A stretch of DNA of 63,187 nt, filler included, from Licmophora abbreviata (Eukaryota): assembly GCA_900291995.1 (NCBI GenBank). It is 4 parts of 4 records of this genome, joined end to end, with 100 filler letters (N's around TTAATTAATTAA, not from the genome) between each part and the next. Parts side by side here need not be neighbours in the genome. Positions count along the whole stretch, not along the records: positions 46,890 to 63,187 come from OLMU01000296.1; 3 more parts are not named here. One strand, 5' to 3'. Numbering within the stretch: the stretch's first letter is position 1; the number at the start of each line of letters is the position of its first letter. Below the pieces are notes generated by a model, which had not been told where the DNA came from, did no database searches, and saw nothing but the letters and a program-made list of their open reading frames with translations. Of this stretch, positions 2,367 to 63,187 are shown piece after piece. A program made the translations under genes and the position numbers.

Positions 2367-3815
2367 CTATGTTGTGCGCACAGTACCTTCCTTGTTGTCG
2401 TCCATTTTACAACCGGCTCGCGCAAGCCCAACTCGTCGCTCTTGCACATCAAATAACACATCGTATCCAATCATGGCATTTGAGCCCAGGACAGCACCCA
2501 CTGGCTCATCCACATAAATGCGATTCGTCAGTTGCCGATTCCCCTTCCACGGTTCTACAGTGCCATCGACCACAGACAGTAGGACATTCTCCATGTACGT
2601 TTGTGGTTGAATGATCAATGTCGTGTTGCCTTCGAACGTAAGACTGACATTTGGCAGGCGGGAAAACTCGACATGTGTGTAAAATCGAGTACGCGTCTGG
2701 GAGTACAGCAGACCCGTTACGCTCCTCCACGCCTTTTCGAATGGAGCCGCCACCGCGTGCGGAAGAAAGGTGTCGGTAGTTCCACTGTCCAAAATTGTTC
2801 CTTTGCCTCGACCGAAACTTGACAAGACTGACTTGGAGTCCCCGCAGGTAATGCAAATATCGCCTACGTGCACGTACGTCACTGGCAAGGAGTAGAATCC
2901 ATTCTCCTTGTCGAGGGGTACAAATCGCATAGGCTCCGTGTGCGTATGCTCGGCCGCCGTACCACCCAGTGAAAGCTGTCCTCCCTCTCTCGTAAAGCAG
3001 AGAGAAAAGGCATGGCGATGGATTGCCCCAGCATCGTACAGTGCCTTGACAATGCTAGTGTCATGAAGCGCCAACCCCAGTATTCCATCTGCATACTGCC
3101 TACGAAACAAGCCCCCTGCGCTCGTTTGACATCCAAACACATGAGGAATAGCGAGCTGCATGAGTCTATCATGCACGACACTGTCGTGCACATTACTGCC
3201 ACCAAACCACACAATGTCTTCCAACTCAAACGCATTCCACGACGAGCCTTCTGTATACTTCTGAGACAGCACGCAGCGACGGGTGAACTGGGAACAGGAG
3301 GACACGCCGACGCCCAATCCACAGTTTCCACATTCTGGTATTATCGCCGTACTGCTCTGATTGTAATCAAAGTACTTGCTCGCGTGCGTTCCACATGTCA
3401 TGCACTCGGAGCATGGAAATGACATGAGTCGACTGCCCGTATCGACAATCAGGGTCTGTCGTTGCGGTGGTGAGCCGACAAAGACATAGACATGATGAGT
3501 TCCGGAAGTAGCATGTAACGGCAACGTAGCAGTAGCGAGGGGATACGACAACGAGGATGTGCGATTCGTAGAATGTGGCTTTAGATCTAATGACGATCCA
3601 CGGAGCAAGTGTTTCTGTGCCAGGCGGCGGCGGCAAGAGACCATCAGCGCTTCGTCGTCACCGTCGCAGTGATGGTGATGCTGCCCTACTGATTTCACGG
3701 CGTCAGGCTCGCTCCAGGAGAATGAAATGCCCATCAGAAATAGCAAACTGAGCAAATCGCAACCCACACGACGTCTTCTCCCTGTCGAGAGGGGTCTATA
3801 TCCTTCCATCCTCAT
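2367..3815 (-). CDS. Pepsin-family (A1) aspartic protease, plasmepsin V/BACE-like, probably entering the secretory pathway
   Basis: Catalytic motifs IVDTGS and ILDSGT, QKYTEGSSW flap, ADGILGL, VLGSNAMIGYDVLFD; hydrophobic N-terminal segment. Confidence 0.9.
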   Translation of the reverse strand: MRMEGYRPLSTGRRRRVGCDLLSLLFLMGISFSWSEPDAVKSVGQHHHHCDGDDEALMVSCRRRLAQKHLLRGSSLDLKPHSTNRTSSLSYPLATATLPLHATSGTHHVYVFVGSPPQRQTLIVDTGSRLMSFPCSECMTCGTHASKYFDYNQSSTAIIPECGNCGLGVGVSSCSQFTRRCVLSQKYTEGSSWNAFELEDIVWFGGSNVHDSVVHDRLMQLAIPHVFGCQTSAGGLFRRQYADGILGLALHDTSIVKALYDAGAIHRHAFSLCFTREGGQLSLGGTAAEHTHTEPMRFVPLDKENGFYSLPVTYVHVGDICITCGDSKSVLSSFGRGKGTILDSGTTDTFLPHAVAAPFEKAWRSVTGLLYSQTRTRFYTHVEFSRLPNVSLTFEGNTTLIIQPQTYMENVLLSVVDGTVEPWKGNRQLTNRIYVDEPVGAVLGSNAMIGYDVLFDVQERRVGLARAGCKMDDNKEGTVRTT

Positions 3816-4097
3816 GTTTTACAGGCCAATAGGTCAACGGCGTGCCTTCTCTTGCGCCATTGTGGATGATGTGTCGATGTGTCGGTCATGGCGTCATGGA
3901 GTCGAAATGGCCCAGCGCGCCGGCCGGCCTCACTCTGATCGCGAGCTTTTCTGTGGTGGGAAAAAACACAAGAGAAAAAAGCATCAAATCTGCATCGATC
4001 GAACCCGGCTTCAATTGAAATCGTCCCAGCCTCGGCATTGTCGTCGCTTGTCTTGCTTTCTCGCTTGTTATCCGGTTACTGCATTCTCCGAATCACC

Positions 4098-7000
4098 ATG
4101 GTAGTCGCGGAAGTGCCTCTGTGGGTCCTGCATTCAGCAGCATCGACCGGAGGCGCACCTGGTGACCGCAACGCCGCGTCAACCTCCGCAAGCAACGCAA
4201 CAGCTGCGGCGACACCCCATTTCTCTCTCGCCACAGAGTCCGTTGCATTCTTGGAGAGTGCTAGTGCGAAACAAAAGTGTGCAATATACTCGATTGATTT
4301 TCATCCGGGTGGAACTAAATTTGCAACGGGCGGCGGCGATGGCACGGTGCGACTCTGGAACAGCTCTGCGCTCTTTCAAACAAACGCGGAGGGTGGAAGT
4401 TATACTAGTACCGGAGCAAAGAATGCATATGCTAGTACGGCCAGTAGTGGTGGCGAGACGAGCGAAAATGAGGATGGCATGAGTGCGACGAATAGTAGCA
4501 GTGTCGTCGCCAGCGCGGACGAACAACAACAAGAAAATGTCGGTGTTCATGACCTCAATCAACTCGTGAGACGAAAGAAAGATGGATCGACCCCACTGAA
4601 GCAACTTCCAACTACTCCATCGGCGTCAGTCGGTGTCTCACTAGCGCCATCACCGCAACAAGCCCGGGAATCTCATCATCGGCTGCTCTGTACCATGTCG
4701 GCTCACACTGGCTCGTCCGTTCTGGCGGTTCGCTTCAGTACTTCTGGACACTATTTGGCTTCGGCCGGTGACGATGCTGCCGTATGTATCTATGCGAAAG
4801 GCAGCAGTACGATGATTGGAAATTTGGATCAGCACCGCCACCATGTCGAACATTGGACTCGCATCAAGCTTTGCCGAGGGCATACATTGGATGCCGTCGG
4901 CTTGGCATGGGCCCCGGACGACTCGCATCTTGTGAGTTGCTCCCTCGACTCGGATGCACCCATTATTGTTTGGAAGCTGACGGATCTCGTTGAGAATACA
5001 AATGCAAGTGCGAGCGGTATATCGTCACAGAAAATTATGTGTCATCCCTACAAGGTACTGGGAAAGGGCATTCACACTTCAACCGTCAAGGGCGTCACGT
5101 TTGATCCAGCTGGAACGTATTTGGCTTCTTCGGGTGACGACCCCGCTGTGTGTATTTGGCGGGCTCACGATGATTGGGGACTCGAGAAACGCATTGACGA
5201 TGGGATCTTTCGAAAATGGAAAGAAGACGAACGAGAATTGTCCAGCCAAACGTTATTTCGACGATTGAGTTGGTCGACAGATGGAACCTATATTTGCAGT
5301 ACCAACGGGACAGTAAAGAATAAGCACGTGGCCTCAACAATTTCGCGAGAGGGATGGAGTGTGAGTAGCAGTCAGTCGGCCGCTGCGGGTGCGGCTAACC
5401 TGGTTGGACACAAACAGCCAGTGGTCGTGAGTCGGCATTGTCCGCAGCTCTTGGATGTGCGAAAAGGACACGAACACGACGAGGATGACGACGAAGAGCC
5501 CGAATACGCCACCTTGGTTGCCTTGGGCGACAAGAAGGGATTCGTTTCGGTATGGAGTACGCGTAGATCACGTCCTATCTTTAAGCTACAGTGCAGCGAG
5601 AGTCGGTGCACCGTAACTGATCTGTCGTGGGGTCGATCGCCAAATGGAGACGACATGATGTTATTGGTGTCGTTGTTGGACGGTCAAGTTGTGGCGCTGA
5701 AGTTTGGAGTGCCCTCCGAGATGGGCTCCTTTCTAAGCGGTCGAGATCAACAACGGGTCTTTCAGCTCCGTTATGGAATTGATCTTGGCGACGGCGCCGG
5801 CATGGGAAGAAGGCGCATGTTTGTCGGGGACCATTCGGCGCCCAAGCTTATCGAGAATGCTCTGCAATTTGCATTGGAAGAAAAGAAAGAAGAAGACGGC
5901 GATGATATTGGTGCCGACCTTGACGTGTCATCGACCGATGACGACAGGCCGATTGGTCAGTTACCATCTCCGAATCGAGTCAAGAAAATGCAGTCTGAAA
6001 CCCAGAGTAATGGGAAGAAACGCATTCGACCGGTCTTGATGGCAGTCGATGAGGGTGACAAGAGAGCAAAGTCGATTGGGGATGCCAAGGCCAAGAAGAA
6101 AAGGTCGGATCCAGTCAAGGAGGCACTTGAGTCTGCCGAGCGAGCCGCGTCTACTGCCGAGGGTTTAACCGCAGCTTCGGCGAAGCGTGACGCATCATCC
6201 AAGGGAGGACATGAGTCTCTTGATCGCCAGAGCTCCGATGCTGATCAGGCGAACGCGTCTCACCACGTGCATCGTCTGTCTCCTGCGACAGCCGAAGTGG
6301 CGCATCCCCGCCTGCCTCACAGTACGAGCCGGATACACTCTATCGACCTTTCGGTTCCACCCGACTCCATCCTATCGACAACTGAGGCGAACGGTTCTTC
6401 TTCCAAGATGATCGCTGACTGCACCAATATCATGCATACACCACCTGGGTCGTCCGGGCAGCCGCTGCCATGTGCTGTCTTGTCCATTAGCCGAGGTGGC
6501 AAGTCGCGATGGAAAGACGAAATACTGGGCACGACGTGCAGTGCCATCGCAGCCGCCAAAAGACTTCTGGCTGTAGGAACAGCTGACGGTACCGTCTATG
6601 TCTATGGAGCAGGGACGACGCTGGGATGGGCGAGTGGATCTGCTTTTCGTGCCCTCCCCCCTCTTGTTGTTGGACACGCCATCGTTTCCTTGCAGCTTGT
6701 CGAAGACGACGACGAGGTGTTGCGCATGCTCGTCGTCTCCGCCGACGGCGTCTTTGGCGTGTATACGATTACACCAGAGTGCAAGCTAGTCTACAAGGGA
6801 TCAATCCTACCTGCGATGACTCACATGAGCTTATCCACTACAGGCCAGTCGAAGGAACTTGCCAACCTAGCCCGTATCCAGATTACCGACTCGGACCACT
6901 TGTTTCTCATTTTGTCACTGGAATCTCCCGACTCGTCAACCAGAACATTCGCAGACGAGAATTCTCGAAGTCGGTCCAGCCAGGCCCCAGTCTCGTATGG

Positions 7001-7592
7001 TGTGGGTGGCGCGCTACAAGCATTCGTCTACAATCTTGACATGGAGTTGTGGCTACGTGTTTCCGACAGTCGCTTCCTCCTTTCAGATTTCTACAGCTCT
7101 CTGCCCACCAAGTCGTCCAGCAAGGGCGTGCTCGAGACCATGGACGATTCTGTCAAGAGCGGGTGTGCTCGCTCATCCCTCAAGCCCTCCCGACGTACCG
7201 GAAATGGTGTCAGGTCATCCGACGTGTATCATGCCGCCGAGGAAGAAGATGGCCGCAACATTGTAACTCGATCGCACTGTGAAGATCGACTGGCATGTGC
7301 CCTGGCGCTAAATTCGCCTGGCGAGTTCCGTTGCTGGTTGGTACTGTACATTCGAAGCTTGACCATGGGAGGGCACGATGATCACCTGCGATTCGTGGTG
7401 GATCTACTTCTTGGGAGTCCCTCGTCGATTTTGGAATCTGCAACGCCTTGTTGGTGGCTCTCATCGGCGCCGACTGTCTTGGGTCTAGACCGAAAAGAGC
7501 TTGTGAAGACGGTCGTTATCCCAGAAATGAGTAAGAACCGTGCCCTGCAACGAGTCACAAACGAAGTAGCAATGGAGGTCGAGGCTGTTTGA
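4098..7592 (+). CDS. HIRA: Histone chaperone HIRA/Hir1
   Basis: N-terminal P.WV.H, WD40 repeats (IYSIDFHP..FATGGGDGTVRLW; VKGVTFDPAGTYLAS; FRRLSWS.DG), B-domain GKKRIRP, C-terminal Hira domain (SHCEDRLACALALNS..EFRCWL..Y). Confidence 0.93.
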   Translation: MVVAEVPLWVLHSAASTGGAPGDRNAASTSASNATAAATPHFSLATESVAFLESASAKQKCAIYSIDFHPGGTKFATGGGDGTVRLWNSSALFQTNAEGGSYTSTGAKNAYASTASSGGETSENEDGMSATNSSSVVASADEQQQENVGVHDLNQLVRRKKDGSTPLKQLPTTPSASVGVSLAPSPQQARESHHRLLCTMSAHTGSSVLAVRFSTSGHYLASAGDDAAVCIYAKGSSTMIGNLDQHRHHVEHWTRIKLCRGHTLDAVGLAWAPDDSHLVSCSLDSDAPIIVWKLTDLVENTNASASGISSQKIMCHPYKVLGKGIHTSTVKGVTFDPAGTYLASSGDDPAVCIWRAHDDWGLEKRIDDGIFRKWKEDERELSSQTLFRRLSWSTDGTYICSTNGTVKNKHVASTISREGWSVSSSQSAAAGAANLVGHKQPVVVSRHCPQLLDVRKGHEHDEDDDEEPEYATLVALGDKKGFVSVWSTRRSRPIFKLQCSESRCTVTDLSWGRSPNGDDMMLLVSLLDGQVVALKFGVPSEMGSFLSGRDQQRVFQLRYGIDLGDGAGMGRRRMFVGDHSAPKLIENALQFALEEKKEEDGDDIGADLDVSSTDDDRPIGQLPSPNRVKKMQSETQSNGKKRIRPVLMAVDEGDKRAKSIGDAKAKKKRSDPVKEALESAERAASTAEGLTAASAKRDASSKGGHESLDRQSSDADQANASHHVHRLSPATAEVAHPRLPHSTSRIHSIDLSVPPDSILSTTEANGSSSKMIADCTNIMHTPPGSSGQPLPCAVLSISRGGKSRWKDEILGTTCSAIAAAKRLLAVGTADGTVYVYGAGTTLGWASGSAFRALPPLVVGHAIVSLQLVEDDDEVLRMLVVSADGVFGVYTITPECKLVYKGSILPAMTHMSLSTTGQSKELANLARIQITDSDHLFLILSLESPDSSTRTFADENSRSRSSQAPVSYGVGGALQAFVYNLDMELWLRVSDSRFLLSDFYSSLPTKSSSKGVLETMDDSVKSGCARSSLKPSRRTGNGVRSSDVYHAAEEEDGRNIVTRSHCEDRLACALALNSPGEFRCWLVLYIRSLTMGGHDDHLRFVVDLLLGSPSSILESATPCWWLSSAPTVLGLDRKELVKTVVIPEMSKNRALQRVTNEVAMEVEAV

Positions 7593-8156
7593 GAGCAGCA
7601 TTGTGTCGGCGTCGAGAAGTGTTGGTTAGCTGGTAGTCTATCATTAACTCTACAACGCAGCGCTATGGTAATACAAAGAGTCCAGGTAGACTAAAGGAAG
7701 TGCTGGTACTCCAAGATAGCATTTCTTAAGACTAAGAAGATGTGGTCATGTAAGATGTTAGCGTGGAGGTCGCGTTTCTACCTGTCGGTCGGAGGATCGG
7801 AATACATACTGGCACGATACCGGTAGAATGCGGTCTGCGGCCTCTGCGTCCGTTGAGATTTGCGTCTGGCCTCGCTCGCTCGTCGTTTGGAACCATTTTT
7901 AAGACGGACCGAGGCCAGGCCATTTTCCAAAAACCCAACATTATATTGGAAAAGGGTAGTAAGAACAAGAACTATATCTGGGCATGGAATGCTAGGAATC
8001 AGGTTACAGCCACGTACGACTCCTTGCGTTGCTTCGCCGCCATTCGCACCAAGACCGCCACACGGGCAAAAGGCGCTGAGGTACAGAAGTCAACTGCTGC
8101 TGCATGAGAGCCTTGCCGTCTTCTGTGTCTCTTTGCTGGATCAGTTAAAACCAACC

Positions 8157-10907
8157 ATGGACCGGAGACTTCTTAGGGTGCGTCAAGATCGACGGCGTCG
8201 TGCTGCGCTCCGAGGCAGATTTATCAATGACGACGACCGTCTTATGAACCTCGTCGACTTTGACGCTGCACGTCATCACGCGCCGGTCGTGGCCGTACGC
8301 ATCGACAATGCCGAGGCACTGATGGACGACGAGATCGAACTAGCACAAGCTGCCGAAGCAAACTTCGATGACGAGGCTCAGCGGGGTCGAAACGCTGCCA
8401 CTATTTCGCCGCGGCTTTTCGACATGATCCGGTCCGAGCATACGTGTACGTCTGTCTTGTCGGGATGGGGATCCGACCGCTCTTGCGAGAGTATTGTTAC
8501 AGCCTGTAGAGAGAACAACGACGAGGCTTTCTTTGCACTTCCCATGACAGGGAGAACCCCGCTCCACGAGGCGTGTCTTCGGAATGCTTGCATACACGTG
8601 ATCCGCTCACTGCTGCAAGTGAGTCCGCTTGTAGCCTCGGACCGTGATCATGCCGGAAACACACCACTGCACCACTTGTTTGTTGACTTCTCGTATCGAT
8701 CGGTCAATGCGCAAGAGATCGATGACATCACCCGGGCGCTTTTGGCTGGAAATCCGGCGACCATTGCGGCTACATCGAACTCGGAAGGAAACAAGCCACT
8801 GCACATGGCATGCGCCGCACCGGAATCCATGGTGCTTGCATCCACCTTGCAATTCCTAATCCAGGCCAGTCCAGAGAGTGCTTCGACGATCAATCTCCGC
8901 TGTCAGACTCCGTTGAGTACGTACTGCAAGCAGCGTCATGCCACTCCAGCGTTTGCAAAAATTCTTTTGGATGCGCATCCGGAGGCGGCGCAAAAGCGGG
9001 ATACCGGTGGAAGGACGCCTCTGCACGATGCTGCCCAAAATTCGAATTCGGAACTCGTTCAATTCTTGGTGAATCAGGCTCCGACATCTGCCAATATTCG
9101 TACGATGCCGAGCGGTCGGACTGCGCTTCACTTGCTTTGCATGCAGAATCCTCACGAAGAAGACATACCGGCCATCCAAGCCTTGTTGACTGCCGAACCA
9201 GGCGTTTTGGAAATGAGAGACACACGTCTTGATCAGGCACCGCTGCATATTATCTGCAAGAATCCTCGAATGTCACTGAACGTCGTTCAACTTCTGACCA
9301 ATAGGGCGGTGGCTGCCACGTCGGACATTGACCGCTATACACCGCTTCATTACGCGTGTGAGACTGGAGCGCCTGAGCAGGTTGTTCAGCACTTGCTTAG
9401 TGTCTATGAAGAGGCCGCAAAGTTGATGACGCGCAAACAAAACACGGCATTGCATATTGCGTGTGGCGCCAACTTGTCGGTCGGGACCGTGCGACTTCTG
9501 ATTCAAGCAAATCCAGAGGCTATGACTATGACGAACGATTATGGCTTCACGCCGTTGCATTGTGTGTGTCGTGCCTACCAGCCTCGCATGGGGATCGTGC
9601 AGGCGTTGCTCGAAGCGAACCCGCACAGTGTCATCTTGCGAACGCATGGAGGAGAAACGCCGGCTCATTTGGCCTGTAGCTCGGGTGCCTTCGTCGGAGT
9701 GTTGCAACTTTTGACGGAAGCACAGTCGTCAGTCAGCGACTCGACCACCAAGCCCCGTGACTTGTTGGCCACTGCCAAAATGACTAACAAAATTGGTAAT
9801 ACGCCCCTACACGAAGCTTGCTTCCGTTCGACCGCATCCTTCGAACACATTGAAACGTTGGCAAGGGCGAATCCAGAATGGATTGTTATTCGCAACAACG
9901 CTGGATACACTCCACTGCAAATCGTGTGCAAGGGAGGACGGTTGGATGAGCGCATTGTGTCGATATTTGCTATGATTCGAGGCCCGGAAGTCTTTTCTGT
10001 CGTCGACTCGGGCGGCCACACGCCCCTTCATTCTGCAAGTCGCGAAGGCACAAGTATGGAGTCGATCCGATCGCTGATTCGAGCCTATCCCGACGCGCTG
10101 TGCCTCAAGACGACCTACGGAGACACACCGTTGCACCTGGCATGCCTTCGTGGAGCCAGTGTCGAGGTTGTCCAGTACTTGGCCGAAGCCAGTAGCGACG
10201 GACGTCACTCGCCGCTCATGGAGCCGAATACTGCAGGGCAAACCCCGATTGGCATCGTCATTGAGCAGTATCAGGTGCTATGTCGTCTAGGTGGATGCTG
10301 CGTCACGTCCGCTCGATCCGAGCTTGTACGGACCTTCAATGTACTCGCGGTGCTCGTCAAGATAGTGTTTTATGGAGCATCTTACGAAAATTCTCTGGTC
10401 AGGCCAGCCAGCCTTGTGCGAGCCTGTGTGGCGCTTCACCGCCAGAACGTCCGCTTGGACCCTGCCTTTATTCGTCGTGCCATTCATCTCTATCCGGAAG
10501 AGGTGCGCATGATGGACGAGGACGGGAACTACCCACTTCATATAGAAGCGAGCATCCCGATCGAAAAGATGATCCTGCTTGACCCGAATACAAAGGGGTG
10601 TTGTACCGGGTCATGTCACACGCGAATGGGTGTACTGGACATGCTCCTTGAGGCCTTCCCAGAGGCATGCCGAGCGAGGAACAAAACTGACGCGTTTCCT
10701 CTTGGTCTGATGATGCTCAACGGTAGACCATGGAACCGCGCTTTTGCGCGTGCCTTACGCGAGTTCCCACCGGCCTTGCACTGGCACCACCTTGGGATCG
10801 ACGAGAAGCTCTTACCTAACACCATTGCCAAGGTATCGCGGGAATGCGGGATGGATACGCTTTACAACTTCATCAACAGCAGACCAGAAGTTGTTCGGAA
10901 GCGTTAA
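8157..10907 (+). CDS. Large ankyrin-repeat protein
   Basis: More than 12 G.TPLH.AC repeats and a diatom-type C-terminus (D..GNYPLH, GRPW); start taken at ATG 8157 (MDRRLLR). Confidence 0.88.
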   Translation: MDRRLLRVRQDRRRRAALRGRFINDDDRLMNLVDFDAARHHAPVVAVRIDNAEALMDDEIELAQAAEANFDDEAQRGRNAATISPRLFDMIRSEHTCTSVLSGWGSDRSCESIVTACRENNDEAFFALPMTGRTPLHEACLRNACIHVIRSLLQVSPLVASDRDHAGNTPLHHLFVDFSYRSVNAQEIDDITRALLAGNPATIAATSNSEGNKPLHMACAAPESMVLASTLQFLIQASPESASTINLRCQTPLSTYCKQRHATPAFAKILLDAHPEAAQKRDTGGRTPLHDAAQNSNSELVQFLVNQAPTSANIRTMPSGRTALHLLCMQNPHEEDIPAIQALLTAEPGVLEMRDTRLDQAPLHIICKNPRMSLNVVQLLTNRAVAATSDIDRYTPLHYACETGAPEQVVQHLLSVYEEAAKLMTRKQNTALHIACGANLSVGTVRLLIQANPEAMTMTNDYGFTPLHCVCRAYQPRMGIVQALLEANPHSVILRTHGGETPAHLACSSGAFVGVLQLLTEAQSSVSDSTTKPRDLLATAKMTNKIGNTPLHEACFRSTASFEHIETLARANPEWIVIRNNAGYTPLQIVCKGGRLDERIVSIFAMIRGPEVFSVVDSGGHTPLHSASREGTSMESIRSLIRAYPDALCLKTTYGDTPLHLACLRGASVEVVQYLAEASSDGRHSPLMEPNTAGQTPIGIVIEQYQVLCRLGGCCVTSARSELVRTFNVLAVLVKIVFYGASYENSLVRPASLVRACVALHRQNVRLDPAFIRRAIHLYPEEVRMMDEDGNYPLHIEASIPIEKMILLDPNTKGCCTGSCHTRMGVLDMLLEAFPEACRARNKTDAFPLGLMMLNGRPWNRAFARALREFPPALHWHHLGIDEKLLPNTIAKVSRECGMDTLYNFINSRPEVVRKR

Positions 10908-15133: not shown

Positions 15134-16015
15134 ATGCCGCGCGATCCATACAAAGCTCTGGGCATCTCCCACGAGGCGTCGGCGGGTCAGATTAAGCAAG
15201 CATATCGGAAATTAGCACTGCAGTTGCACCCAGACCGGCTCACACGACAAAAAGCGTCGACAGAAGAAGCTAAGGAGGCCGTCAAGAAGTTTGCAGAGAT
15301 TGCGTCTGCCTACCAACTGCTTACGGACGACCAGCGCAAGCGACAGTATGACCACATTTATAAATATGGAGGCTACGACGACGACGTAGAAGCGGTTAAG
15401 GAAGTGCCACAAGTACGGAGAACAGCACAGCCCACAACCTTTCATTACCCGACTTCAAATGTACGGCGGTCGACGAAGCGGTCATCGTCCTCGCCACCTT
15501 CGGGGTTTTCGCCGTTTCCATCATCTCCGTCCGAGAAGAATAAAACTGGCATTGGGTATGCTGTAACGGACCCCATATCATTCTTGTTGTCCCGAGGAAA
15601 CAATCGATCGGCGGCAGTCGCTGGAGTTCAGATTCCATCCAGAATTCACCTGGCGCACCCGCCGCCAGGCGGCGGCTTTCGACTGGCATTTTCATCGGGA
15701 CAATACAAGAAAACACCGAATGGGTGTAAAACATACGTCTCCAAGACGACGCAGTTTGTTCAAGGAAAGAAGTATTCTCGAGTAGAGACTACTACATTGC
15801 ACCCGGACGGGCGAAAAGAAATAGTCATTGAGGGAAACGATTATGTCGAACGAAGAGTCAGTACTCCTCCCAAGAGAAAAACGAAGTCGTCGCGGAAGGA
15901 ACACGACAACGTAGCGGCGACGAAAGAAGAGCCATGGTATATTGGAGCATGGAATGGTATTTGTGACAAATTAAGCATGTGCCACAACCCATGTGCTGCT
16001 GTCATGGCACAGTGA
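15134..16015 (+). CDS. DnaJ (J-domain) protein
   Basis: DPYKALG...IKQAYRKLALQLHPD...FAEIASAYQLL.D..KR.QYD; DNAJB6-like C-terminal beta region. Confidence 0.9.
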   Translation: MPRDPYKALGISHEASAGQIKQAYRKLALQLHPDRLTRQKASTEEAKEAVKKFAEIASAYQLLTDDQRKRQYDHIYKYGGYDDDVEAVKEVPQVRRTAQPTTFHYPTSNVRRSTKRSSSSPPSGFSPFPSSPSEKNKTGIGYAVTDPISFLLSRGNNRSAAVAGVQIPSRIHLAHPPPGGGFRLAFSSGQYKKTPNGCKTYVSKTTQFVQGKKYSRVETTTLHPDGRKEIVIEGNDYVERRVSTPPKRKTKSSRKEHDNVAATKEEPWYIGAWNGICDKLSMCHNPCAAVMAQ

Positions 16016-16401
16016 AGATCATTTTTAGAGGGGATGCCGGCGTCCAAGCTGTGGTCGCACGACATTATTTGTTGGTCTCGAGAGACCTTATCTGTCAGCC
16101 AAGTCCAGTAAAGTTAAATCTGTGAGATCGTTTATGAAGACTGTACGATTGTTATGAAACCACGTGTGTCGTTGCCTGTCACAACACGTAGCTTTGATAG
16201 CTTTGAACGCCATGCTGAACTAGTTCCTTTGTCGCTTGGAGCACAACCAGTCATTAATCTGACTCCAATCGTACCAGCTGCCTGATCTTAGCAAGGATTA
16301 TTCAGTTCAGGATTGTTGAATGCGCAATGTGCGAATCAAGTTCCACCGCTCTCATCACTCATTGCAATGCTCATCGTCTTCGATGTTTTACCCCTGATGT
16401 T

Positions 16402-16501
16402 NNNNNNNNNNNNNNNNNNNNNNNNNNNNNNNNNNNNNNNNNNNNTTAATTAATTAANNNNNNNNNNNNNNNNNNNNNNNNNNNNNNNNNNNNNNNNNNN
16501 N
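16402..16501. other. Artificial assembly spacer (N44-TTAATTAATTAA-N44)
   Basis: Exactly 100 bp; the central 12-mer has stops in all six frames. Confidence 0.97.
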
Positions 16502-16735
16502 AAGTACGAAGAGAAGCGAAGACGAGAGGTGGGAATGCTGGAACGACAGCAACGCGAAGTGGAAAGCAGGACAAAGAGGGCTCCTCAGAATCCTATGGCG
16601 ACCCTGATAAAAGCAAAACGAAAGCGTGTCACACCGACATGTCCGAAGGTGCAGCAAAGTGCGTTGTCAAAAGAAACGGGTGGTGGGTTAGAAGGCCTAT
16701 TGGGGGGATACGGCTCCGATTCTGATTCTGATTGA
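16502..16735 (+). CDS. 3' fragment of a gene truncated by the gap (coiled coil, basic stretch, LLGGYGSDSDSD tail; possibly FAM192A/Fyv6-like)
   Basis: Open frame from the gap edge to TGA 16733-16735; the L.GY.SDSD tail is typical of nuclear proteins, but the family call is weak. Confidence 0.45.
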   Translation, partial: KYEEKRRREVGMLERQQREVESRTKRAPQNPMATLIKAKRKRVTPTCPKVQQSALSKETGGGLEGLLGGYGSDSDSD

Positions 16736-16744
16736 GTAGCTGCA

Positions 16745-18411
16745 CTATTTTTTCTTCTGAATAATCTTATTCCGCAGCTCTTTCGTTGTTTGGTCGTTTT
16801 GCAAGTATCGTTCTACAATGTCCCGAGCATACTGTGGCAACGCTATTCTCGCCCGCTCTTCACCCCACACATGCAGCACATGAAAGTAATTTCGGAGCAC
16901 ATGGTAGTCTATGCTGTAGCGAGCAAAGTTGACACCTTTTGGACCCACATTCGTCAGTACGTTCGCGAAGATTTCGGCTATCCATCGCGGCATACCCTCT
17001 GCTCGTACCTCACCGCCGGACATTCCCATGACGATACCATCGGACGCCACGGTTGCCGCCGCTAGCTGTTCGTATGCTCCAGAGCCTGTTGCATCGTCCA
17101 TGATTTCCAATCGGGACGCGTCCCGGGCACACTCTACCATCGTGAAGCCTTTCTCGTTGCGGATCGTAAGAGTTTGACTGGACGTATCCATTCGTCCACT
17201 GCGATCCAGGGGAGCGCCCATATATCCGACCACGACATCAGCTAGGGCATTCGTGTAATCAAAGCAAGCAAGACACGAAGGCGCTATGGAGGCTTCTGCA
17301 ATACTCCCCGGCAAAGTAAAATATGGCTTCTTCACATACGAGTCATCCGTCTTGACGTGCACCCGAAAATCCTATGACACACACAGAATGCAGTTAGCCT
17401 TGTTATCAACAGTACACCACATGTTTCTGGATTTTGGCGCTCACCTGCATGAATTCGTAACCTCGTATCCGACTCTCCTCCACTTTGACACCGTTGCGGA
17501 TGAACGATTGTGCCGCCTCTGGCGTCGGGCTATTGTCAGCACAGTTTGTTCCCAATACGTAGACCTCGTCCAAGTCGAGACTATCCTGGACAGATCGAAA
17601 TGCTATATATAGTAGGAGAAAATGCAGTGTACGATGTGAGAGCCTTGATGGCACCCGCTTCAAATTCTAGATGCCTCCACAAAAACATACCTTGCACGGA
17701 ACAACCAACGCCGCAAAACAGGAGCTTCCGTATGGATTTGTCCTCTTGAATTCTATCCAAGACACGTAAGCTTGGGGCTAGCGCTGGTTTTACACCCCGT
17801 CCCCGGAGGACATCCTGAGGAGTCTTGGCAATTATTGGTTCCGGAGAACTCCATTGATCCGAAGATTCTTTGGCAATGCACACAACCGCGTCGACCATTC
17901 CGCTCTCCAGCATCGACAAGGCTATTCCAGTCACACATCCCGTCCATTGCGCGTTCGCTACACTCTTCCCGCGAGCTAGCTTCATAGGTTGGTACAGGAC
18001 TCCAAAGCGCGCTTCTTCGGCAAGGCTTGATGATGAAGACGAGGAGGATGCTGATTTCACATGAGCGATTGTTAAGTCGCGTTTCCGACCATGTACTTTG
18101 TGTTCCAGCTGGTCGATTCGCGCCATTCCTTCGTCGAGGAATGCACATGCATTGGAAACTTGTGAAACAAACGTCGTTTCACACAAGCCACATTTGGAAC
18201 AGTGCTCCTTTGCCGGAAACCGATCAGGCCATCCCGACGGTTCGATCGGCGACGCAGCATTTTGAGTAGTCGCCCTTTGTGCGGATGAGGAAGTCCTTCG
18301 ATGTCTCGAAGTGAATGCCTGAAGCGGAAGTACAGGGGTAGCGAGAAATACTGCGACGAGGAGAAGTGCATCCGACGACCAACGAATCTTCGGTGCCGCT
18401 GTTTTCGCCAT
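16745..18411 (-). CDS. HCAR / ferredoxin-dependent divinyl reductase (BciB)-like FrhB-family Fe-S flavoprotein. Exons 18411-17691, 17602-17445, 17371-16745
   Basis: PAKEHCSKCGLC, KPALAPSL, LFCGVGCSVQA, YVLGTNCADN, YEFMQDFRVH, PSCLACFDYTNALADVVVGYMG, GPKG..FARYSIDYH; introns 17690-17603 and 17444-17372; signal plus transit-like N-terminus. Confidence 0.88.
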
Positions 18412-55812: not shown

Positions 55813-57135
55813 CTACGCGACCTTCTCCCCCAGCTCCTTGTTGACGAACTCCTTGAATGCGTCGACTGTGCGGACTTCAGACTCGTACTTGACCGCAGTT
55901 CCATCGGGCTTGATGATGTTCACGGTAGGGAAGGAGCTGGTGTTGAGCTCTGCCGTCACAAAGTCACGCACTTCGTCTCCACGGAAGCTGTAGACGTCCA
56001 TGTCCATCTCCTTGGCAAAGTCTTCGAACTGCTCCTCCATCGCCTGCGAGAACTGGCACCACGGAGCATAGACAACCATGACGGAAGCCTTTCCAGACTT
56101 TTTGATTTCGAGGGCCTCCTCGGTGGTCTCGACCTTCTTGACGCTGCTGGAGTCTTTCTCCCAAAGATCACGATCCCAAGTTCTCTCAGCACCGCTAACA
56201 TGGATACCGCATTCCGTCTTAGTAGACCCATCTTTGTTGGCAAGTCCAACAAAGCGACCCTTGCGCTCGTTTCCATAGTCAAGCCATTCAGGAGCATCGC
56301 CCTCAAACTTAAAGTCGACGAAGCGCACCGATCCATCCTCAGGAATAGGAATGGTGTCTTTGGCATCACCGATGGAGGGGTATCCCTTGGCATGGAGAGG
56401 ATGATGGGGAACCTTGTACTTGGCAAGGTAATCAAAGGTATCCTCGAAGGTCCAGTAAGCAAGAGGGTTGCACTTGGCAAGTCCGCCACCGATCGGGGCG
56501 TTCTCGAACAAGTCGATCCAAGCACGCTCGGCTCCCTGCCAACGAGTGCGTCCGTTGATCATGCAATCGGTCTCGAGAGTCTTGAGTCCGCGCTGGAAGG
56601 GCTCGACCTTGCAAACTCTGTCGTATTCATCAATGTTCTCTTTCCAGAGATCGGCGCCGTACTTCTTGTCATAGGCAGCCTTGTCGTCGACAGGAACGCC
56701 TTCGGCACAGAAGACTTCCGACTTGAAGCCATAGTGGTCTTCGATCTCTCGCAAGAAATCCATCGTCTCGGGGAAGAGGTGGAACGTATCGACGACCATG
56801 ACCTTGCACTTGGGATTCTCGCCCTTGAGGTAACCCATGCGGTCCAGCAGGTGGGTGATGACGCAGTCGCCGGCAATCATAGCATTCGGGAACACGGCGT
56901 TTCCGTAGTTTTCGCACGCGATCTTAAGCGCAAACATAGACTGCTCTTCCAAGTGCTTCAGGCGCATCTCCTTGGACTCGGCAATGTACGCCTCCTGGTC
57001 AAAAATCTCTTCGGCCATGCGCACAGCGACGGGACTAGTCTTCTGAGCCGCATTGGTCGAGAATGCAGCGCGAGGAGCAAAGGCCGACACGGTGGAGGCA
57101 CCAGCAATGGCAAGGACGACGGCGATGTACTTCAT
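55813..57135 (-). CDS. APR: Plastid APS reductase of the Fe-S-less APR-B type with C-terminal thioredoxin-like domain
   Basis: Signal peptide plus VSAFAP; VDTFHLFPET, CKVEPF, GRTRWQG, NPLAYW, GYPSIGD, ERKGRF, TECGIH; YAPWCQFSQ TRX-like domain. Confidence 0.9.
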   Translation of the reverse strand: MKYIAVVLAIAGASTVSAFAPRAAFSTNAAQKTSPVAVRMAEEIFDQEAYIAESKEMRLKHLEEQSMFALKIACENYGNAVFPNAMIAGDCVITHLLDRMGYLKGENPKCKVMVVDTFHLFPETMDFLREIEDHYGFKSEVFCAEGVPVDDKAAYDKKYGADLWKENIDEYDRVCKVEPFQRGLKTLETDCMINGRTRWQGAERAWIDLFENAPIGGGLAKCNPLAYWTFEDTFDYLAKYKVPHHPLHAKGYPSIGDAKDTIPIPEDGSVRFVDFKFEGDAPEWLDYGNERKGRFVGLANKDGSTKTECGIHVSGAERTWDRDLWEKDSSSVKKVETTEEALEIKKSGKASVMVVYAPWCQFSQAMEEQFEDFAKEMDMDVYSFRGDEVRDFVTAELNTSSFPTVNIIKPDGTAVKYESEVRTVDAFKEFVNKELGEKVA

Positions 57136-57632
57136 GGTGGAGAGCGTGTAGAAGAAAGACCTCAGTTGAGGTTGTGGGAAGGTGTATCTTGCAGAAAACC
57201 TTGGCGGCAAAACGAATGACGCGATTGGTTCTAATTTTGGAATGCGACCTCCATTTTGTGAGCTCTGCGAGCCACACAATTATCTCGTACTGTCGTACGT
57301 ATGAAATTCGTAGAAGAATGAAGAAGTACCGAACGCGCATCGCGCGAATTCCTGCGAGCTCTTGTTTCTCCGTCATCATGCGACCTCGTGAGCAATTCGA
57401 AAGCTCGACGGAGCTCATTTTTTATCATAGCAAGGACAGGCTAAAACGCATATCATACCAGCTCGAGGTAGTCTATCGAGTCAGTCTACAGTACAATAAG
57501 TGCGAAAGCACACCGTGAAGGTAGGTCTAAGCACTAGGCTTCAACGTGAGAGTGCTCCGAAAGGTAGCAACTGTAGCTCAATTCGGTGGTAAAGGCTACA
57601 AAGATCATTGGAACACATATTCAAATGTTTCT

Positions 57633-60600
57633 CTATCGGATGATTCCATTCCGAGCACCGAACGTGTTTGAGGGGTCGACAGTACGCTTGAAGGCGCTAA
57701 CCATGTTGCGGTAATTTTCCGAGTCCATCTGCTCGGCAAAATCAGCGCGCTTCTTTCCCACGCCGTGATGGTGGCTCAATGAACCACCAAGCGACAAGAT
57801 TTCCTGACGAGCGGCGTTCTCAATATGGGCAAATGATGCGCTCGGGTTCTTGACACCTGCTACATTCATGCAAAAGTAAAAGTACAGGCAAGCACCTTCG
57901 TGGTACAGCTGCGTGACGCGACATCCGATGAACGGCAGACCTGGAAAACAACGTGTTTCATGTTCTTGACGTATACGATCCTTTGTCTTCGTCACGATTT
58001 CAGTCAGCTTGGACCAAGGGGCGAATGTTTCGAAAGACTCGGCCAGGAACGAATACGTCATTGCAAAGTCGCGAAGGTAGGCAATGGCGAATGTCAGCTG
58101 GTAGCCAGAGCGTCCAATTTTAGGACCGGCGAGAGTGCCGCCGTGAGTGGATGATGCCTGTTGCACGAGCCTCCGTTGAAAATTCACTTCTTCTCGACTT
58201 CCTTCAAAGACAATGGTCGCACAGACGACTCTTGTTGAAGAGTAGGATCGGTGAGACGACACCAGCGCCTTCTTCATGAAGTTTACGAGCTGTTCCAGAC
58301 TACTAGTATCACCGCGCAGCGCTTGTCCGAGACGAAACTGCTCATTGTCCAGAAGTCGAACGCTCGCAGGAAGGTTTGGTCCCAGTAGCGCCAGCTCGCG
58401 GGCAAAACGTAAACCATGTTCAAAGTCTGGTAGAATAACACTCTCGTAGTCCTTGCATTCTGGTTGATGCCAGATCCGTATGACAGCGCTCGTGATAATT
58501 CCAAAGCACCCTTCGGATCCTAGCATCAACGAGCAAAGGTCCAAACCGCGGGACTCTCGCCCCACAGAGCCCGAGATGTCCTCATGCGAGCCTCGCCATA
58601 GAGGTCCTTCGGAGCTTGCGACACGAACGGACTGGACAATATCCTCAATGTTGCCATACTTGTTTCGTTTCATCCCGCTTGCTTTCGTAGCGATCCACCC
58701 TCCGAGTGTGCTGAACTCGATACTATCTGGTTCATGGCCGATCGTGTAGCCCCGGTGCTCCATCTCTTCGACGAGCTGCCGACCGGTTATACCAGCTTCG
58801 ACATGGGCAAGCCCATCCTCTTCGTTCACCCACACGATTCCGGTCATCAGTTTCATATCAACTGAGACAATTGGGCGGGGCTCAACTGTCTTCGATGGGC
58901 AACGAGTGGCATTCGATACATTGGTACCTCCCCCATGAGGAATTAGACACCAGCTTCTCGTCTTCGCGAGGGTGACGAGGTGCGTGATCTCGTCCTCTGA
59001 TGAAGGCCAAACGACCGCGTCAGGTAGTCGAATCGAGTCGATTGATCCGCTACGGAGAAGGAAGATGTCTTCCTGTGAATGCCCCGTCCCATGGCGGGCG
59101 CGGTCCGCCGGAGACGTAGAAACTCGTGCAAAATTGTCTTTCAGCTGATCGATATCGTCGCGTGACAACTCACTCATAACTTCCGGGACTTCGATTTCGC
59201 CGCTGAACGCCGCCCGCAGTGGGTCGATTCGAACTTTGGTCTCATTTTCGAAGAAAGGAATCAGCTTGGTTAAGGACTTGCCGCACACGTGCTCATATCT
59301 GGATCCGGTCATGACCACCTCTAGAGACCTGTCCTGTGTTTTGCGTAGGACAAACCCTGAGTCTTTGAACCCCCAGGACCCTAAAGATTCCAGAGACACG
59401 GACAGCTCATCATCATCAGGCATTTCTCGAAGACGACGAATACTGCTTTGGGAAACACCATCTAGATCGTGTTTGGCGCTGTTCGTCACTTGAAATGACA
59501 CCGCAGCGCGAACCACTTGGATTGGTAGAGTGTTGTTACGTCGAGTCGTGATCTGAATGACATGCTCGAGCGACGGACGATCGAATCCATTTCCTCGAAG
59601 ATGGTTCAAAGTAGCAAGAACGGAGGAATCAGCGAGATCAAATACCTCCGACACACGCCTGACAAGTTTCGCTGCTGACGGGTGTTCTTGGCGTGCAATT
59701 GTGGGATAGTCAGAAAGGGGATTCAGCCATGAGCTCCAATTGGGATGGGATACCGCAAAGTAGGGCGCAAGGACGTGGCCGAACTGAAGGAATACTGCCC
59801 ACTGCTGCGAAGAGGAAGAAGGAACATCGAGATCTCGAAGGTCCTTCCGACATGAACACCCGACGAGCGTCGAGGGCCAAGGCTTTCCATCAAATTGTGC
59901 CACGGCTTCAATGGTTTCCGCTTCGTCCATTCGCAGGGCCCTAGCTGCGTGTCGAATATGATGCGTGGATACAAATGTCGACTCTTGGTGTAGCTGTTGA
60001 ATAGTTCTGGTGAGACTGGCGAAATCAACGACGTCATCTGCCCCCATTCGAACGGGAGAGGCGGCTGCGACGTGAATCTTACCGAGCGAAACATTGCCTG
60101 CAACAACATTCTGGAGGAGACGACAACCGTGAGTAAAATGAACAGAAACGCAAACAGATTCGCCGAGCATTCGTAGTCGATACCTGCAACCACCGAACAA
60201 GACCGCGAACGCCAAGAGGTGCACGTGTCCCCGTCTCGGTCTCCTCCAGGAAGGTGGATTCTTCAGCTATGTTCTCGTAGTTTATGCCGATGGGACAAAT
60301 CAGATGGTTCCCTCCCGTTTCAGCAAGACATCTGTCAAAAATAAATACAGACGTGAAAGAAACGTTAGATAATTGGTCTGTCCTAAACAAACATGCAAGA
60401 ACGAATGAACTTTCGCGCCACTTACCGTAAGAGACCGGTCTTAGGCGGAATAGATCGGCGATCCCGGCTCCTGGTGCCTTCCACGAAAATTTCGATGCAT
60501 GCCCCGCTCCGGTGATGATGCTGCTTGATAGCAGAAACAGAGTCTCGGAGTCCTGGTTCAGGACTTCCTCGCCCACGTTGAACAAAGAAAGCGTTACAAG

Positions 60601-63187
60601 TTCGGGCAAGCCAGCCAATGAGTGGAAGACGCGAGAAATCGTCCGCTGCTGCAATGTAGGGCAACTGCAAGCCCATCTCGGGCAGCGAAAAAGCAATGTA
60701 GCTTAGAAGTATGAAGTCAAAAAACGACCGATGCGTCGGAGCGAGAATTATGTGTGGATGAATGCCTTGTTGGGTGCTCGACGCAGCGCGGGCAAGCGCC
60801 GCGAACGATTCGACATCAACCGTCAGGGATTCGCAGCATGCACGAAGGATCTCGCTGAACGCCCATCCCGCCAGTCGAATTACGAAGCCACCACGGGGTT
60901 GGGTCATGGCCCACAGGAAGCCAGCCCCCTTTCCTTCGTACAAGGCACCGCCCACTAGGAGCGGCGATAGTCTGAAGGCAGACTCTCCAGCCTTATTAGC
61001 GTCTTCGGACTTGTCTAAAAACCGCAATGCTGAAGCTGTACACGTAAACAGATATCTCTCTCCGTCAAGACTAGCAGGCGCAACTAGATCGGAGCGAAAG
61101 CGAAAGTCGTTGTTCATAAAAGGGAAGAAAAGTAGAGGGAGATCAAGAAATGAAGTCAATCTTGACAGGTCCTCTAACCACTTGTGGCGCCAGCCAATAC
61201 ACCCGCACGCCCGAAGTGTAGTGTCGACGGGCTTGCGTACCATAAATTCGTGCATGAGAGCGAATGTGTGGACAGTCAGTTTCATTCGGGGGAGCCAACT
61301 AACCGCAAACATCAGTCCAATGTACGCTGTAAGTCGGGAGAAGTAGCCCATGACCGAACCGAGTTGAGTAATTGCAACCGCGTATTCCACCCAGGTGAAA
61401 GCGGTTGAATCCGGAGAAGACACATCCCAAGCGACATTGTAGATACTCTTGTTCGCGCAGGATGCAAAGATGACCCGTTCCCCATTACCCGACCCGCACG
61501 AGGATGAATCTGTAAGCGCAGTTATTCGCTCAAAATCGTCATCCGAGGAGTACGCAGATGATGGTGAGTCAACAAAGTTGGACCTGTCGACCGAAGTGAA
61601 TGCCTTCGCAATGGCAAACCGTGAAACGACATCAACGGGAATGCATGGCACTCGATGAGCGCCAAAGCACCATAGATTCCATTGGTATCGTATATAAAGA
61701 CATGCAGCAGCGACGAGTGTTGATGGGCGTTCGCCAGCCCATCCTTCAATGGGCTTCTGAATAGCAGGACCGACGATGCTCGGACGAAGAATGGTTGTGT
61801 GCACCGGGCTCTCTTGGAGCAGTATATGTTCGCAGACACATTTGCTGAACGTATACGTGTTGGGAAACCCAAGATCATTCATCGCTGATGACGCGTAGAA
61901 CTGGGTGCCAATCATCGACCGGTAGACCTCGACTGCGTCATAAGTGCCCAGCGGATGCAGTCGTTCTGGAAGCGGACTCGATACCGTTCCTGCCAACTCT
62001 CCGTGAACGAAAGCGGTGCTGAAGTGGACGTATCTCGCGCCTGGATTCTTCAATCGGCCAGTCAGCTCCTGCATATTCAACGAAGATGAAATATTTGCCA
62101 CGGCAGACTCATTGAGAGATTGAGTGAAGCTTACTGAAGCGGCACAATGGATGACATGTGAAACAGCTGCCTCGTTGCAGACCCAGGAATAGTCACCCTC
62201 CGACAAGCCAGCTCGCTTTTTCGTCACATCAGAATCAAACACCCTTACAAGCATAGCCTTCTCGGCCTCCAACAAAAAGGAGAACATGGGTTTATTGAGA
62301 AGGACAGATACTCTATCTTTCGCTGAGCAACCACGTCTCGAGCGGCAAAAGAGAATGACCCCCTCCGTTATTCCAAGGGACTGGCGATGTAGAAGCAAAT
62401 CGCGAAGCACGAGTGAACCGATGAATCCCGTTGCTCCAGTGAGTATCACCGCACCGCCAGGATTGTCAGCAGGCGAATTAGGGATGCGAAGAGCCTCCAG
62501 CTTCAGTAGAGGAGTTTCATCGGTATCATTCTCTTTCTCGGCCGTGTTTCTGCCATCTTCGCGAGCACAGGAGCAATACTTTGCAAAGCAGCGTGAACCG
62601 TCAGTGTACAGATCCGACATGCATCGTCTCAAAAGCACGGTGACTGCAACGGCAAGAAAAAGAAAGAAAAGACCGACGCGGACAGCCCTTAACAATATGA
62701 AAGACACTGCACCAAGGCATGGGGACCCCAGAGCCACCAAAGGAAATATCACAGCGCATGATATCAATATCATTAGGCGGAAGGAAGGCTTCGAGTTGGC
62801 ATCATTCCGCCGGCTCTTCAAGACGTCACAGTGTCGAGAGGTCAGAGAAATTGCATCCCTCACGTCTACTGCAAGGCGACGTAGCTCACGAGTACACATG
62901 GGAATACTCGAAACTGGCAGATACACAACCCTGTCCATGAGGTCGTGTGCTCTAGAACACACAGCACCATCTGATGAGTGTTGGCCGATACATTGCAGCT
63001 GTGAAGAGCCACGAGTGATATCCCAGCCTTTGAGACGAAGGGCTCGACAGAAGGGGTATGAATCATTGGCAAGAAGAGGAAAAAGCCAGTAAGTAGAACC
63101 AAAGCTCACAGAGATGGGGGTCATGCTCGGAGCTACATTGGCAAGAAGTTCGGACATAACTTTGCACCGCGCCGACCTCGCCAAGAC
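57633..63187 (-). CDS. Multifunctional ether-lipid synthase, 5'-partial: DegT-like PLP domain, TM, fatty acyl-CoA reductase, DHAP/G3P acyltransferase, alkyl-DHAP synthase. Exons >63187-60426, 60331-60184, 60110-57633
   Basis: FAR: ILTGATGFIG, VIHCAASVSF, NTYTFSK, RPSIV. Acyltransferase: PTHRSFFD, FVEGTRSRD, PKTGLL, PIGINYE. AGPS: PDAVVWP, IPHGGGTNVS, GHEPDSIEFSTLGGW, GMKRNKYGNIED, GSEGCFGII, RLLDNEQF, ESFET, SHHHGVGK. Introns 60425-60332 (GTAAGT...GACAG) and 60183-60111 (GTATCG...CTCCAG) keep the frame. Confidence 0.85.

Follow-up and report, generated by a model that had tools for sequence, protein, structure and literature searches.

One gene of the diatom Licmophora abbreviata predicted to encode a multi-enzyme ether-lipid synthase

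The window analysed here is the whole 63,187-nucleotide (nt) stretch of DNA from the diatom Licmophora abbreviata, and the gene in question lies on its minus strand, with the 5' end cut at position 63187. This gene appears to unite, on a single chain, the reductase FAR, an acyltransferase of the GPAT/DHAPAT type and AGPS, the flavin adenine dinucleotide (FAD) enzyme of ether-lipid synthesis. Ether-lipid synthesis is textbook peroxisomal biochemistry, carried out by separate enzymes or, in some protists, with the two-domain protein FARAT. The region very probably covers three quarters of a single diatom gene, counted from its 3' end, and this gene, with three exons and two GT-AG introns, would code for a multi-enzyme ether-lipid synthase; the arrangement of the frames and domains was confirmed, and the activities are those that the domains would be expected to confer. 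All features described below are on the minus strand unless stated otherwise.

Exons, introns and domains of the gene

On the minus strand, the list of open reading frames (ORFs) contains one frame at 60422-63187, open at the window edge, and another at 57633-60266. The original prediction was that the two belong together, joined in frame by two GT-AG introns of 94 and 73 nt and a bridging exon of 148 nt, and all of these elements were found exactly where it had placed them. Exon A (60426-63187, 5' end open; 920 codons plus two bases of a split Arg codon), which was delimited from the ORF list, the sequence, Pfam and the alignment, encodes the apparent tail of an aminotransferase, a hydrophobic hairpin, FAR and the acyltransferase blocks I-III. 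It is followed by intron 1 (60332-60425; 94 nt, GTAAGT...ACAG, phase 2), exon B (60331-60184; 148 nt, translated as CLAETGGNHLICPIGINYENIAEE...RWLQ), which contributes acyltransferase block IV, intron 2 (60111-60183; 73 nt, GTATCG...CCAG, phase 0) and exon C (57633-60110; 825 codons plus the stop at 57633-57635; delimited from the ORF list, Pfam and the PDB search), in which residues 1-242 form the C-terminal part of the acyltransferase region and AGPS follows. Both introns were read from the sequence: the minus strand runs CTC TTA CG/GTAAGT...TTTTGACAG/A TGT CTT across the first junction and TGG TTG CAG/GTATCG...CTCCTCCAG/AAT GTT across the second. A script that joined the three exons returned a coding sequence of 5388 nt (1795 codons and the stop) with the C-terminus FGARNGIIR and not a single internal stop, which bears out the expectation of a chain of more than 1790 amino acids uninterrupted before AGPS. 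If intron 1 is not spliced, the frame of exon A terminates immediately (stop at 60422-60424) because a TAA sits within the GTAAG donor, and exon B has stops in both of its remaining frames.

The small bridging exon is conserved. When its 49 amino acids alone were compared by blastp with a small local database, 96 of the 98 long relatives described below were matched, 87 of the 98 at E<1e-3, and the best match (E 1.3e-12) extended over residues 1-49, a match rate far above chance. No gap interrupts the alignment of the spliced protein with 15 relatives at either junction, and the conserved P-I-x-I-N-Y-E stretch in it is supplied by exon B. Homology thus makes a strong case that both introns are spliced in Licmophora abbreviata. 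A search of sequencing runs listed none of RNA for the window; one weak match, with 0.09 of the words, yielded four short contigs (48-332 nt) on 57400-63187, none of them near the junctions, and says nothing either way on splicing. With open frames and intact catalytic motifs, the locus was judged not to be a pseudogene. On the plus strand, a 299-amino-acid open frame (62193-63092) lies antisense to exon A, wholly within the conserved coding region, and is probably a shadow frame.

Pfam, run on the three exon pieces of the window protein, detected all four domains that had been anticipated, NAD_binding_4, Acyltransferase, FAD_binding_4 and FAD-oxidase_C. The FAR domain (NAD_binding_4, PF07993; 61619-62443, residues 249-523) was found with an E-value of 4.8e-37 and 128 bits against a cutoff of 20.1. 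The translation contains TGATGFIG and YTFSK, which conform to the patterns GxxGxxG and YxxxK that we take to be the nucleotide-binding and the catalytic motif of FAR, respectively; in the family profile, YxxxK aligns with 'tYvFtK' of the FAR structure 7eoz. The first part of the acyltransferase (PF01553; 60428-60754, residues 812-920; E 1.3e-16, 61.1 bits against a cutoff of 23) covers positions 15-116 of the 132 in the Pfam profile and breaks off at the end of exon A, so that the domain spans the junction, as had been proposed: the stretches HRSFFD (I), AFFVQRGRG (II) and FVEGTRSR (III) are in exon A, and PIGINYE (IV) is in exon B. These presumably correspond to the acyltransferase blocks HxxxxD, FxxR, EGxRS and P-I-x-I-x-Y-E. 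Each of the four has an aligned counterpart in GPAT1 (8e4y) when the family profile is compared with that structure (E 2.9e-23); for block IV of exon B, it is 'iiPvgisYdri'.

The AGPS module (57636-59384) matches guinea-pig AGPS (4bby) with an E-value of 1.4e-132 over 579 residues (243-821) and Dictyostelium AGPS (2uuu) with an E-value of 5.6e-69, and both of its Pfam domains were identified, FAD_binding_4 (PF01565; 58596-59024; E 4e-33) and FAD-oxidase_C (PF02913; 57660-58463; E 1.5e-29). The equivalents of Arg419, Tyr578 and the His615-617 loop, which we take to make up the active site of AGPS with the roles given in the structure papers, are kept, with asvRl, aclYfyf and slsHHHg in the alignment; the Tyr is the sole difference between the mutant entry 4bca and 4bby in the printed part.

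Upstream of FAR, a hydrophobic stretch (62612-62791, residues about 133-192) probably forms two membrane helices: in the 1795-amino-acid chain, it alone contains 19-residue windows with a Kyte-Doolittle mean above 1.6. Its position, but not its sequence, is shared by a hydrophobic stretch in the relatives. The N-terminal end of the window protein, residues 1 to about 117 (62837-63187), appears to be the C-terminal small domain of a DegT-like aminotransferase dependent on pyridoxal phosphate (PLP), and is recognized by a partial profile match and by its alignment with the motifs W.FP, GFD..RG.SQL and LYLP of the relatives. PF01041 was not matched by Pfam in the 921-amino-acid piece of the window protein, which contains only the tail of this module. 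Among the curated NCBIfam models, none reached its cutoff for the window pieces, for the aminotransferase (the best score being 94.8 bits against a cutoff of 631) or for the bacterial FAR-acyltransferase and AGPS proteins discussed below.

Relatives of the gene and the two intron sites

When exon C was used to search for longer proteins, 98 relatives of 1487-2727 amino acids were retrieved, with a best identity of 52%, and in all of these the acyltransferase and AGPS are on the same chain. Diatoms account for most of them (Thalassiosira, Cyclotella, Nitzschia, Seminavis, Fistulifera, Skeletonema and others), and among the remainder are dinoflagellates (Symbiodinium, Prorocentrum, Effrenium), Phaeothamnion and the green alga Pycnococcus. 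Five of them (P0012, P0044, P0067, P0082 and P0095) were obtained from transcriptome assemblies and are continuous, and therefore, in the relatives, one mRNA carries all the domains. By a profile census, 60 of the 98 have all five modules (ACBP, the DegT-like PLP aminotransferase, FAR, acyltransferase and AGPS), 22 lack only ACBP, nine consist of FAR, acyltransferase and AGPS only, three have ACBP without the aminotransferase, and four are partial. The Pfam layout of seven relatives places ACBP at about 20-95, DegT_DnrJ_EryC1 at about 216-430, NAD_binding_4 at about 750 and Acyltransferase at about 1305, followed by FAD_binding_4 and FAD-oxidase_C; for Pycnococcus, Pfam identifies FAR, acyltransferase and AGPS only.

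Because FAR starts at residue 249 in the window protein and at about 750 in the relatives, the protein is incomplete in the window, with about 500 residues encoded beyond 63187 and a whole chain of about 2300 residues. The original claim of three enzymes on a single polypeptide is thus upheld as to the fusion, the same FAR, GPAT/DHAPAT-type acyltransferase and AGPS domains being found in the full-length relatives, including those derived from transcriptomes, but it fell short of the extent of the chain: about 500 more N-terminal residues are to be expected, which in the relatives comprise ACBP and the aminotransferase.

In a quick maximum-likelihood tree (31 rows, C-terminal 830-860 residues), the window protein belongs to a 10-row group with pennate diatoms, supported at 98 by the Shimodaira-Hasegawa-like approximate likelihood ratio test (SH-aLRT); this group stands beside that of the Thalassiosirales and apart from the dinoflagellates. 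Seminavis robusta has at least three paralogues, two of which are shorter and lack the aminotransferase (P0075 and P0076; 1797 and 1693 amino acids); in the quick tree, these two fall outside the main diatom group. In one short paralogue of this species, ACBP is C-terminal rather than N-terminal and there is no DegT domain.

The positions of the introns left a distinct trace in the databases. We examined 103 shorter relatives (P0099-P0201), with the distant proteins P0202-P0217 and P0021, which was already in the long set, excluded. In 29 of these, the sequence ends precisely where intron 1 lies (...TG.L[RK]), and another five terminate 2-23 residues past this site. By pattern, 54 pass from exon-A-type straight into exon-B-type sequence and reach their end 1-72 unrelated residues beyond W..V, where the V is the GT of the intron 2 donor read through; one of these, P0140, actually continues correctly, which leaves about 53. 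The remainder comprise four that continue into AGPS, two odd ones and nine that are cut earlier. Both intron positions thus recur in the relatives, and the shortened proteins end at GT donors, as expected of gene callers that ignore introns. Relatives without intron 1 have exon B directly joined to the acyltransferase.

The next gene downstream, on the same strand (55813-57279), about 350 nt from the stop of the large gene, encodes PAPS_reduct (E 2.8e-29) with a C-terminal Thioredoxin domain, an order typical of sulfate assimilation enzymes of the APS-reductase type. Elsewhere in the window, the segment 28001-30000 has an AT skew of -0.256 at a GC content of 0.551, and the lowest GC content (0.472) is that of 16001-18000.

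Known enzymes, bacterial counterparts and the aminotransferase

Known ether-lipid enzymes act in peroxisomes. The closest described architecture is FARAT, the bifunctional FAR-DHAPAT protein of Tetrahymena thermophila and Dictyostelium discoideum, in which the reductase precedes a GPAT/DHAPAT-type acyltransferase within one polypeptide that feeds both substrates to AGPS (PMC13012113, PMC7375469). Exon A has the same order, with FAR first and the acyltransferase next on the same chain. The difference is that, in the window protein, AGPS is fused behind the FAR-acyltransferase unit, and in its relatives, ACBP and the aminotransferase are placed in front. Furthermore, the C-terminus of the Dictyostelium FARAT is SKL (PMC7375469), whereas the window protein has no type 1 peroxisomal targeting signal (PTS1); and P0202, a classical FARAT-like protein, carries PF03015 and PF19277 (the latter according to precomputed Pfam annotation), neither of which was detected in the window protein. 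The likeness to the peroxisomal AGPS (4bby, 2uuu) extends to both FAD domains and the active-site equivalents, but those enzymes stand alone, whereas the AGPS of the window is the C-terminal module of a far longer chain that does not end in a PTS1.

In bacteria, the same three activities are encoded together, with FAR and the acyltransferase already fused. The AGPS/FAR-acyltransferase operon MXAN_1676-MXAN_1675 of Myxococcus xanthus is one example, described in a 2026 survey (PMC13012113). A scan of bacterial genomes with the AGPS alignment retrieved 80 loci at 37-46% identity, the neighbours of which were identified with local profiles: FAR is near AGPS in 44 and an acyltransferase in 30, and in 27 of the 80, a single FAR-acyltransferase ORF follows AGPS on the same strand. 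The orders differ, AGPS being a separate gene upstream of FAR-acyltransferase in bacteria and a fused module downstream of it in the window. The FAR-acyltransferase part of the window protein has 28% identity to one such bacterial protein (211 bits, E 8e-62) and 25% to P0202 (135 bits, E 3e-36), and thus is nearer to the bacterial protein than to this one classical FARAT-like protein.

Among the bacterial AGPS loci, one from a Gemmatimonadaceae genome (L051) is a tight four-gene operon of AGPS, FAR-acyltransferase, a DegT-like protein and a PlsC-like acyltransferase. Its DegT-like protein matches the diatom aminotransferase profile with an E-value of 3e-72 (positions 172-613), and residues 313-398 of this protein align with residues 32-117 of the window protein at 37% identity (E 5e-10). 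No PF03015 was found by Pfam in the FAR-acyltransferase of this operon. Thus, the operon puts a member of the same aminotransferase subfamily beside the same ether-lipid enzymes, but as separate genes, with no ACBP and with an extra small acyltransferase, and it is rare among the bacterial loci.

The bacterial DegT-like subfamily includes at least 1120 proteins at E<=1e-20 and has the motifs IPRG, LSVRS, EDCA, FSFGxIKT, GFDATRG and LYLP in common with the diatom module. In a second set, 80 metagenome loci that carry this subfamily, three have the aminotransferase beside ether-lipid genes, 12 are fusions with FAD_binding_4 and 65 are neither. The first three comprise L081 (FAR-acyltransferase, aminotransferase and PlsC-like acyltransferase), L083 (FAR, then aminotransferase) and L126, where FAR, acyltransferase, HAD hydrolase, AGPS and DegT-like protein are separate consecutive genes (3284-9074), in an unfused version of the diatom gene set. 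In both L051 and L081, the PlsC-like acyltransferase follows the aminotransferase with overlapping stop and start. The fusions are of about 870-880 amino acids (L114, 7977-10589; L116, 7944-10589; and ten more loci), and the FAD_binding_4 part was confirmed by Pfam in the two that were checked; in the one compared with NCBIfam (L114), the closest models to this domain are those of DprE1-like and sugar-lactone oxidases, at scores below the curated cutoffs. DprE1-type oxidases make a ketone, and the fusions may be oxidase-transaminase pairs. No conserved neighbourhood of the bacterial aminotransferase was found when Pfam was run on 53 of the 187 ORFs around 24 loci: outside the FAD_binding_4 and ether-lipid cases, the neighbours are unrelated (sulfatase, reductases, transporters and others). 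The link between the aminotransferase and ether-lipid genes is real but rare in bacteria and the rule in diatoms.

The module itself is retained for the most part in 82 of the 98 long relatives. PF01041 was detected by Pfam in five of seven relatives and matches only the first ~200 of its 360 profile positions. Across 30 relatives, S369, F370, G371 and K374 (P0195 numbering) are invariant and align to 'fSFypgK' of the DegT-family structure 7n63, in what we assume to be the PLP-binding lysine motif (SFxxxK) of these aminotransferases, and the EDCAE motif is equally invariant and aligns with the same structure. Because the SFGxIK lysine and EDCAE are invariant and match 7n63, the module looks catalytically competent in the relatives. 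Its fold-type motifs, PLP lysine and aspartate motif are those of the DegT/DnrJ/EryC1/StrS sugar aminotransferases (PF01041), but it occurs in a lipid context and not in that of nucleotide sugars. One protein (P0312, 619 amino acids) combines an acyltransferase fragment with DegT and may be a fusion or the result of a miscalled start; it was not used as evidence.

Proposed pathway, alternatives and implications

The domain content suggests a chain with the modules in the order ACBP, DegT-like PLP aminotransferase, hydrophobic hairpin, FAR, GPAT/DHAPAT-type acyltransferase and AGPS. In such a chain, ACBP would gather acyl-CoA, FAR would reduce part of this acyl-CoA to fatty alcohol, the acyltransferase would put an acyl group on dihydroxyacetone phosphate (DHAP) to yield acyl-DHAP, and AGPS would swap the acyl group for the fatty alcohol to yield 1-O-alkyl-DHAP. 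A single membrane-anchored chain would then perform the committed steps of ether-lipid synthesis at the membrane, without PTS1 import. The activities of the enzymes, the channelling between them, the ether-lipid output, the cellular location and the part played by the aminotransferase are all predictions from homology and domain order.

Several observations weigh against this scheme or against parts of it. Two domains that might have been expected were not matched by Pfam in the window pieces, the FAR C-terminal domain PF03015 (at E<=0.01) and GPAT_C (PF19277). The best solved match of the acyltransferase is GPAT1, a glycerol-3-phosphate enzyme, and the sequence does not tell DHAP from glycerol-3-phosphate; DHAP is the presumed acceptor because the acyltransferase is fused to AGPS. 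The protein has no PTS1 at its C-terminus (...NGIIR), and none of the 98 long relatives ends in [SAC][KRH][LM], so that the original remark that no SKL-type signal is present extends to the whole family. Splicing and the single transcript are deduced in Licmophora from homology. For two diatoms, Dataset S5 of a 2026 survey lists AGPS as stand-alone models of 554 and 561 amino acids (PMC13012113). Finally, no paper on diatoms making alkyl ether lipids was found in a literature search that left most subscription journals outside its reach, and in the diatom and plankton papers checked, the term 'ether-linked' concerns betaine lipids or annotation libraries.

It is rather unlikely that the fused gene also gives shorter products, FAR-acyltransferase alone by retention of intron 2 or AGPS alone by an internal start at the Met of VVMTGSRY. 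If intron 2 were retained, the frame would run on for another 33 residues before a stop, with all the acyltransferase blocks already encoded, to give FAR-acyltransferase without AGPS; 12 of the 13 diatom sequences aligned share the internal Met, and it is at this Met that the truncated AGPS models of Dataset S5 begin (PMC13012113). These two points, too, count against a gene with the fused chain as its product. The conservation of the Met may, however, be structural because the green alga and guinea-pig AGPS have another hydrophobic residue, Leu, at this position.

An alternative that concerns the product rather than the gene, and is compatible with the fused gene structure, is that the aminotransferase aminates the 2-keto group of alkyl-DHAP (or DHAP) to form a 2-amino ether lipid that is then N-acylated. 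In the textbook pathway, a reductase handles the 2-keto group and there is no step for an aminotransferase. This possibility, which we consider doubtful, draws on the invariant PLP lysine and EDCAE, on the retention of most of the module in the great majority of the long relatives, and on four bacterial loci, in three of which the aminotransferase is directly behind FAR or FAR-acyltransferase (L051, L081, L083) and in the fourth behind AGPS (L126); the PlsC-like acyltransferase directly after it in L051 and L081 would be a candidate for the N-acylation, and in the 12 fusions with FAD_binding_4, the partner, where checked, is DprE1-like at scores below the curated cutoffs. Conversely, nine of the 98 relatives, including the green alga, do without the aminotransferase, the bacterial linkage is limited to one of the 80 AGPS loci and three of the 80 aminotransferase loci, with varying neighbours elsewhere, and the proposed substrate is pure conjecture. 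We know of no 2-amino ether lipid of that kind, and none was searched for by name. In its fullest and equally tentative form, the proposal is that, in diatoms, many dinoflagellates and a few Gemmatimonadota-type bacteria, the aminotransferase would replace alkyl-DHAP reductase and, by amination of the alkyl-DHAP 2-keto group, give rise, on a membrane outside the peroxisomal matrix, to 1-O-alkyl-2-amino (N-acyl) glycerolipids, a class of lipid not yet described.

That there are instead two genes, one for FAR-acyltransferase ending at 60422-60424 and an independent one for AGPS starting further downstream, is very improbable: the raw ORFs are indeed separate, many database proteins end at the same place as the exon A stop and the two survey models stand alone (PMC13012113), but this reading fails because it leaves the acyltransferase without block IV and the linker is conserved, exon B and the 242 residues before AGPS being collinear with the relatives, all 98 of which are continuous, five as transcripts, and the truncation points of the short database proteins coincide with GT donors.

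The single fused gene is therefore the reading retained here. Its novelty, which had been part of the original prediction, is of a limited kind. No paper describing a fusion of FAR, acyltransferase and AGPS was found, most subscription journals being outside the search, but diatom data show this architecture as the usual one rather than a rarity, and the long relatives are already public under automatic names such as alkylglycerone-phosphate synthase. The sequences, accordingly, are not new; what appears to be new is the description of this architecture as an enzyme. In the 2026 survey, Ciliophora are the only Diaphoretickes with FARAT and diatom AGPS consists of short stand-alone models (PMC13012113); the correct reading of the introns would change this picture. 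It also flags a recurrent annotation error, with 83 of the 103 shorter database relatives cut, by pattern, at either of the conserved intron sites, and places the FAR-acyltransferase-AGPS combination in diatoms, dinoflagellates and one green alga. Diatoms dominate ocean primary production. With all the committed steps of ether-lipid synthesis predicted to lie on one chain in these organisms, the questions arise whether diatoms make alkyl glycerolipids, where such lipids would be synthesized given a hydrophobic anchor and no PTS1, and what part the PLP aminotransferase may play.

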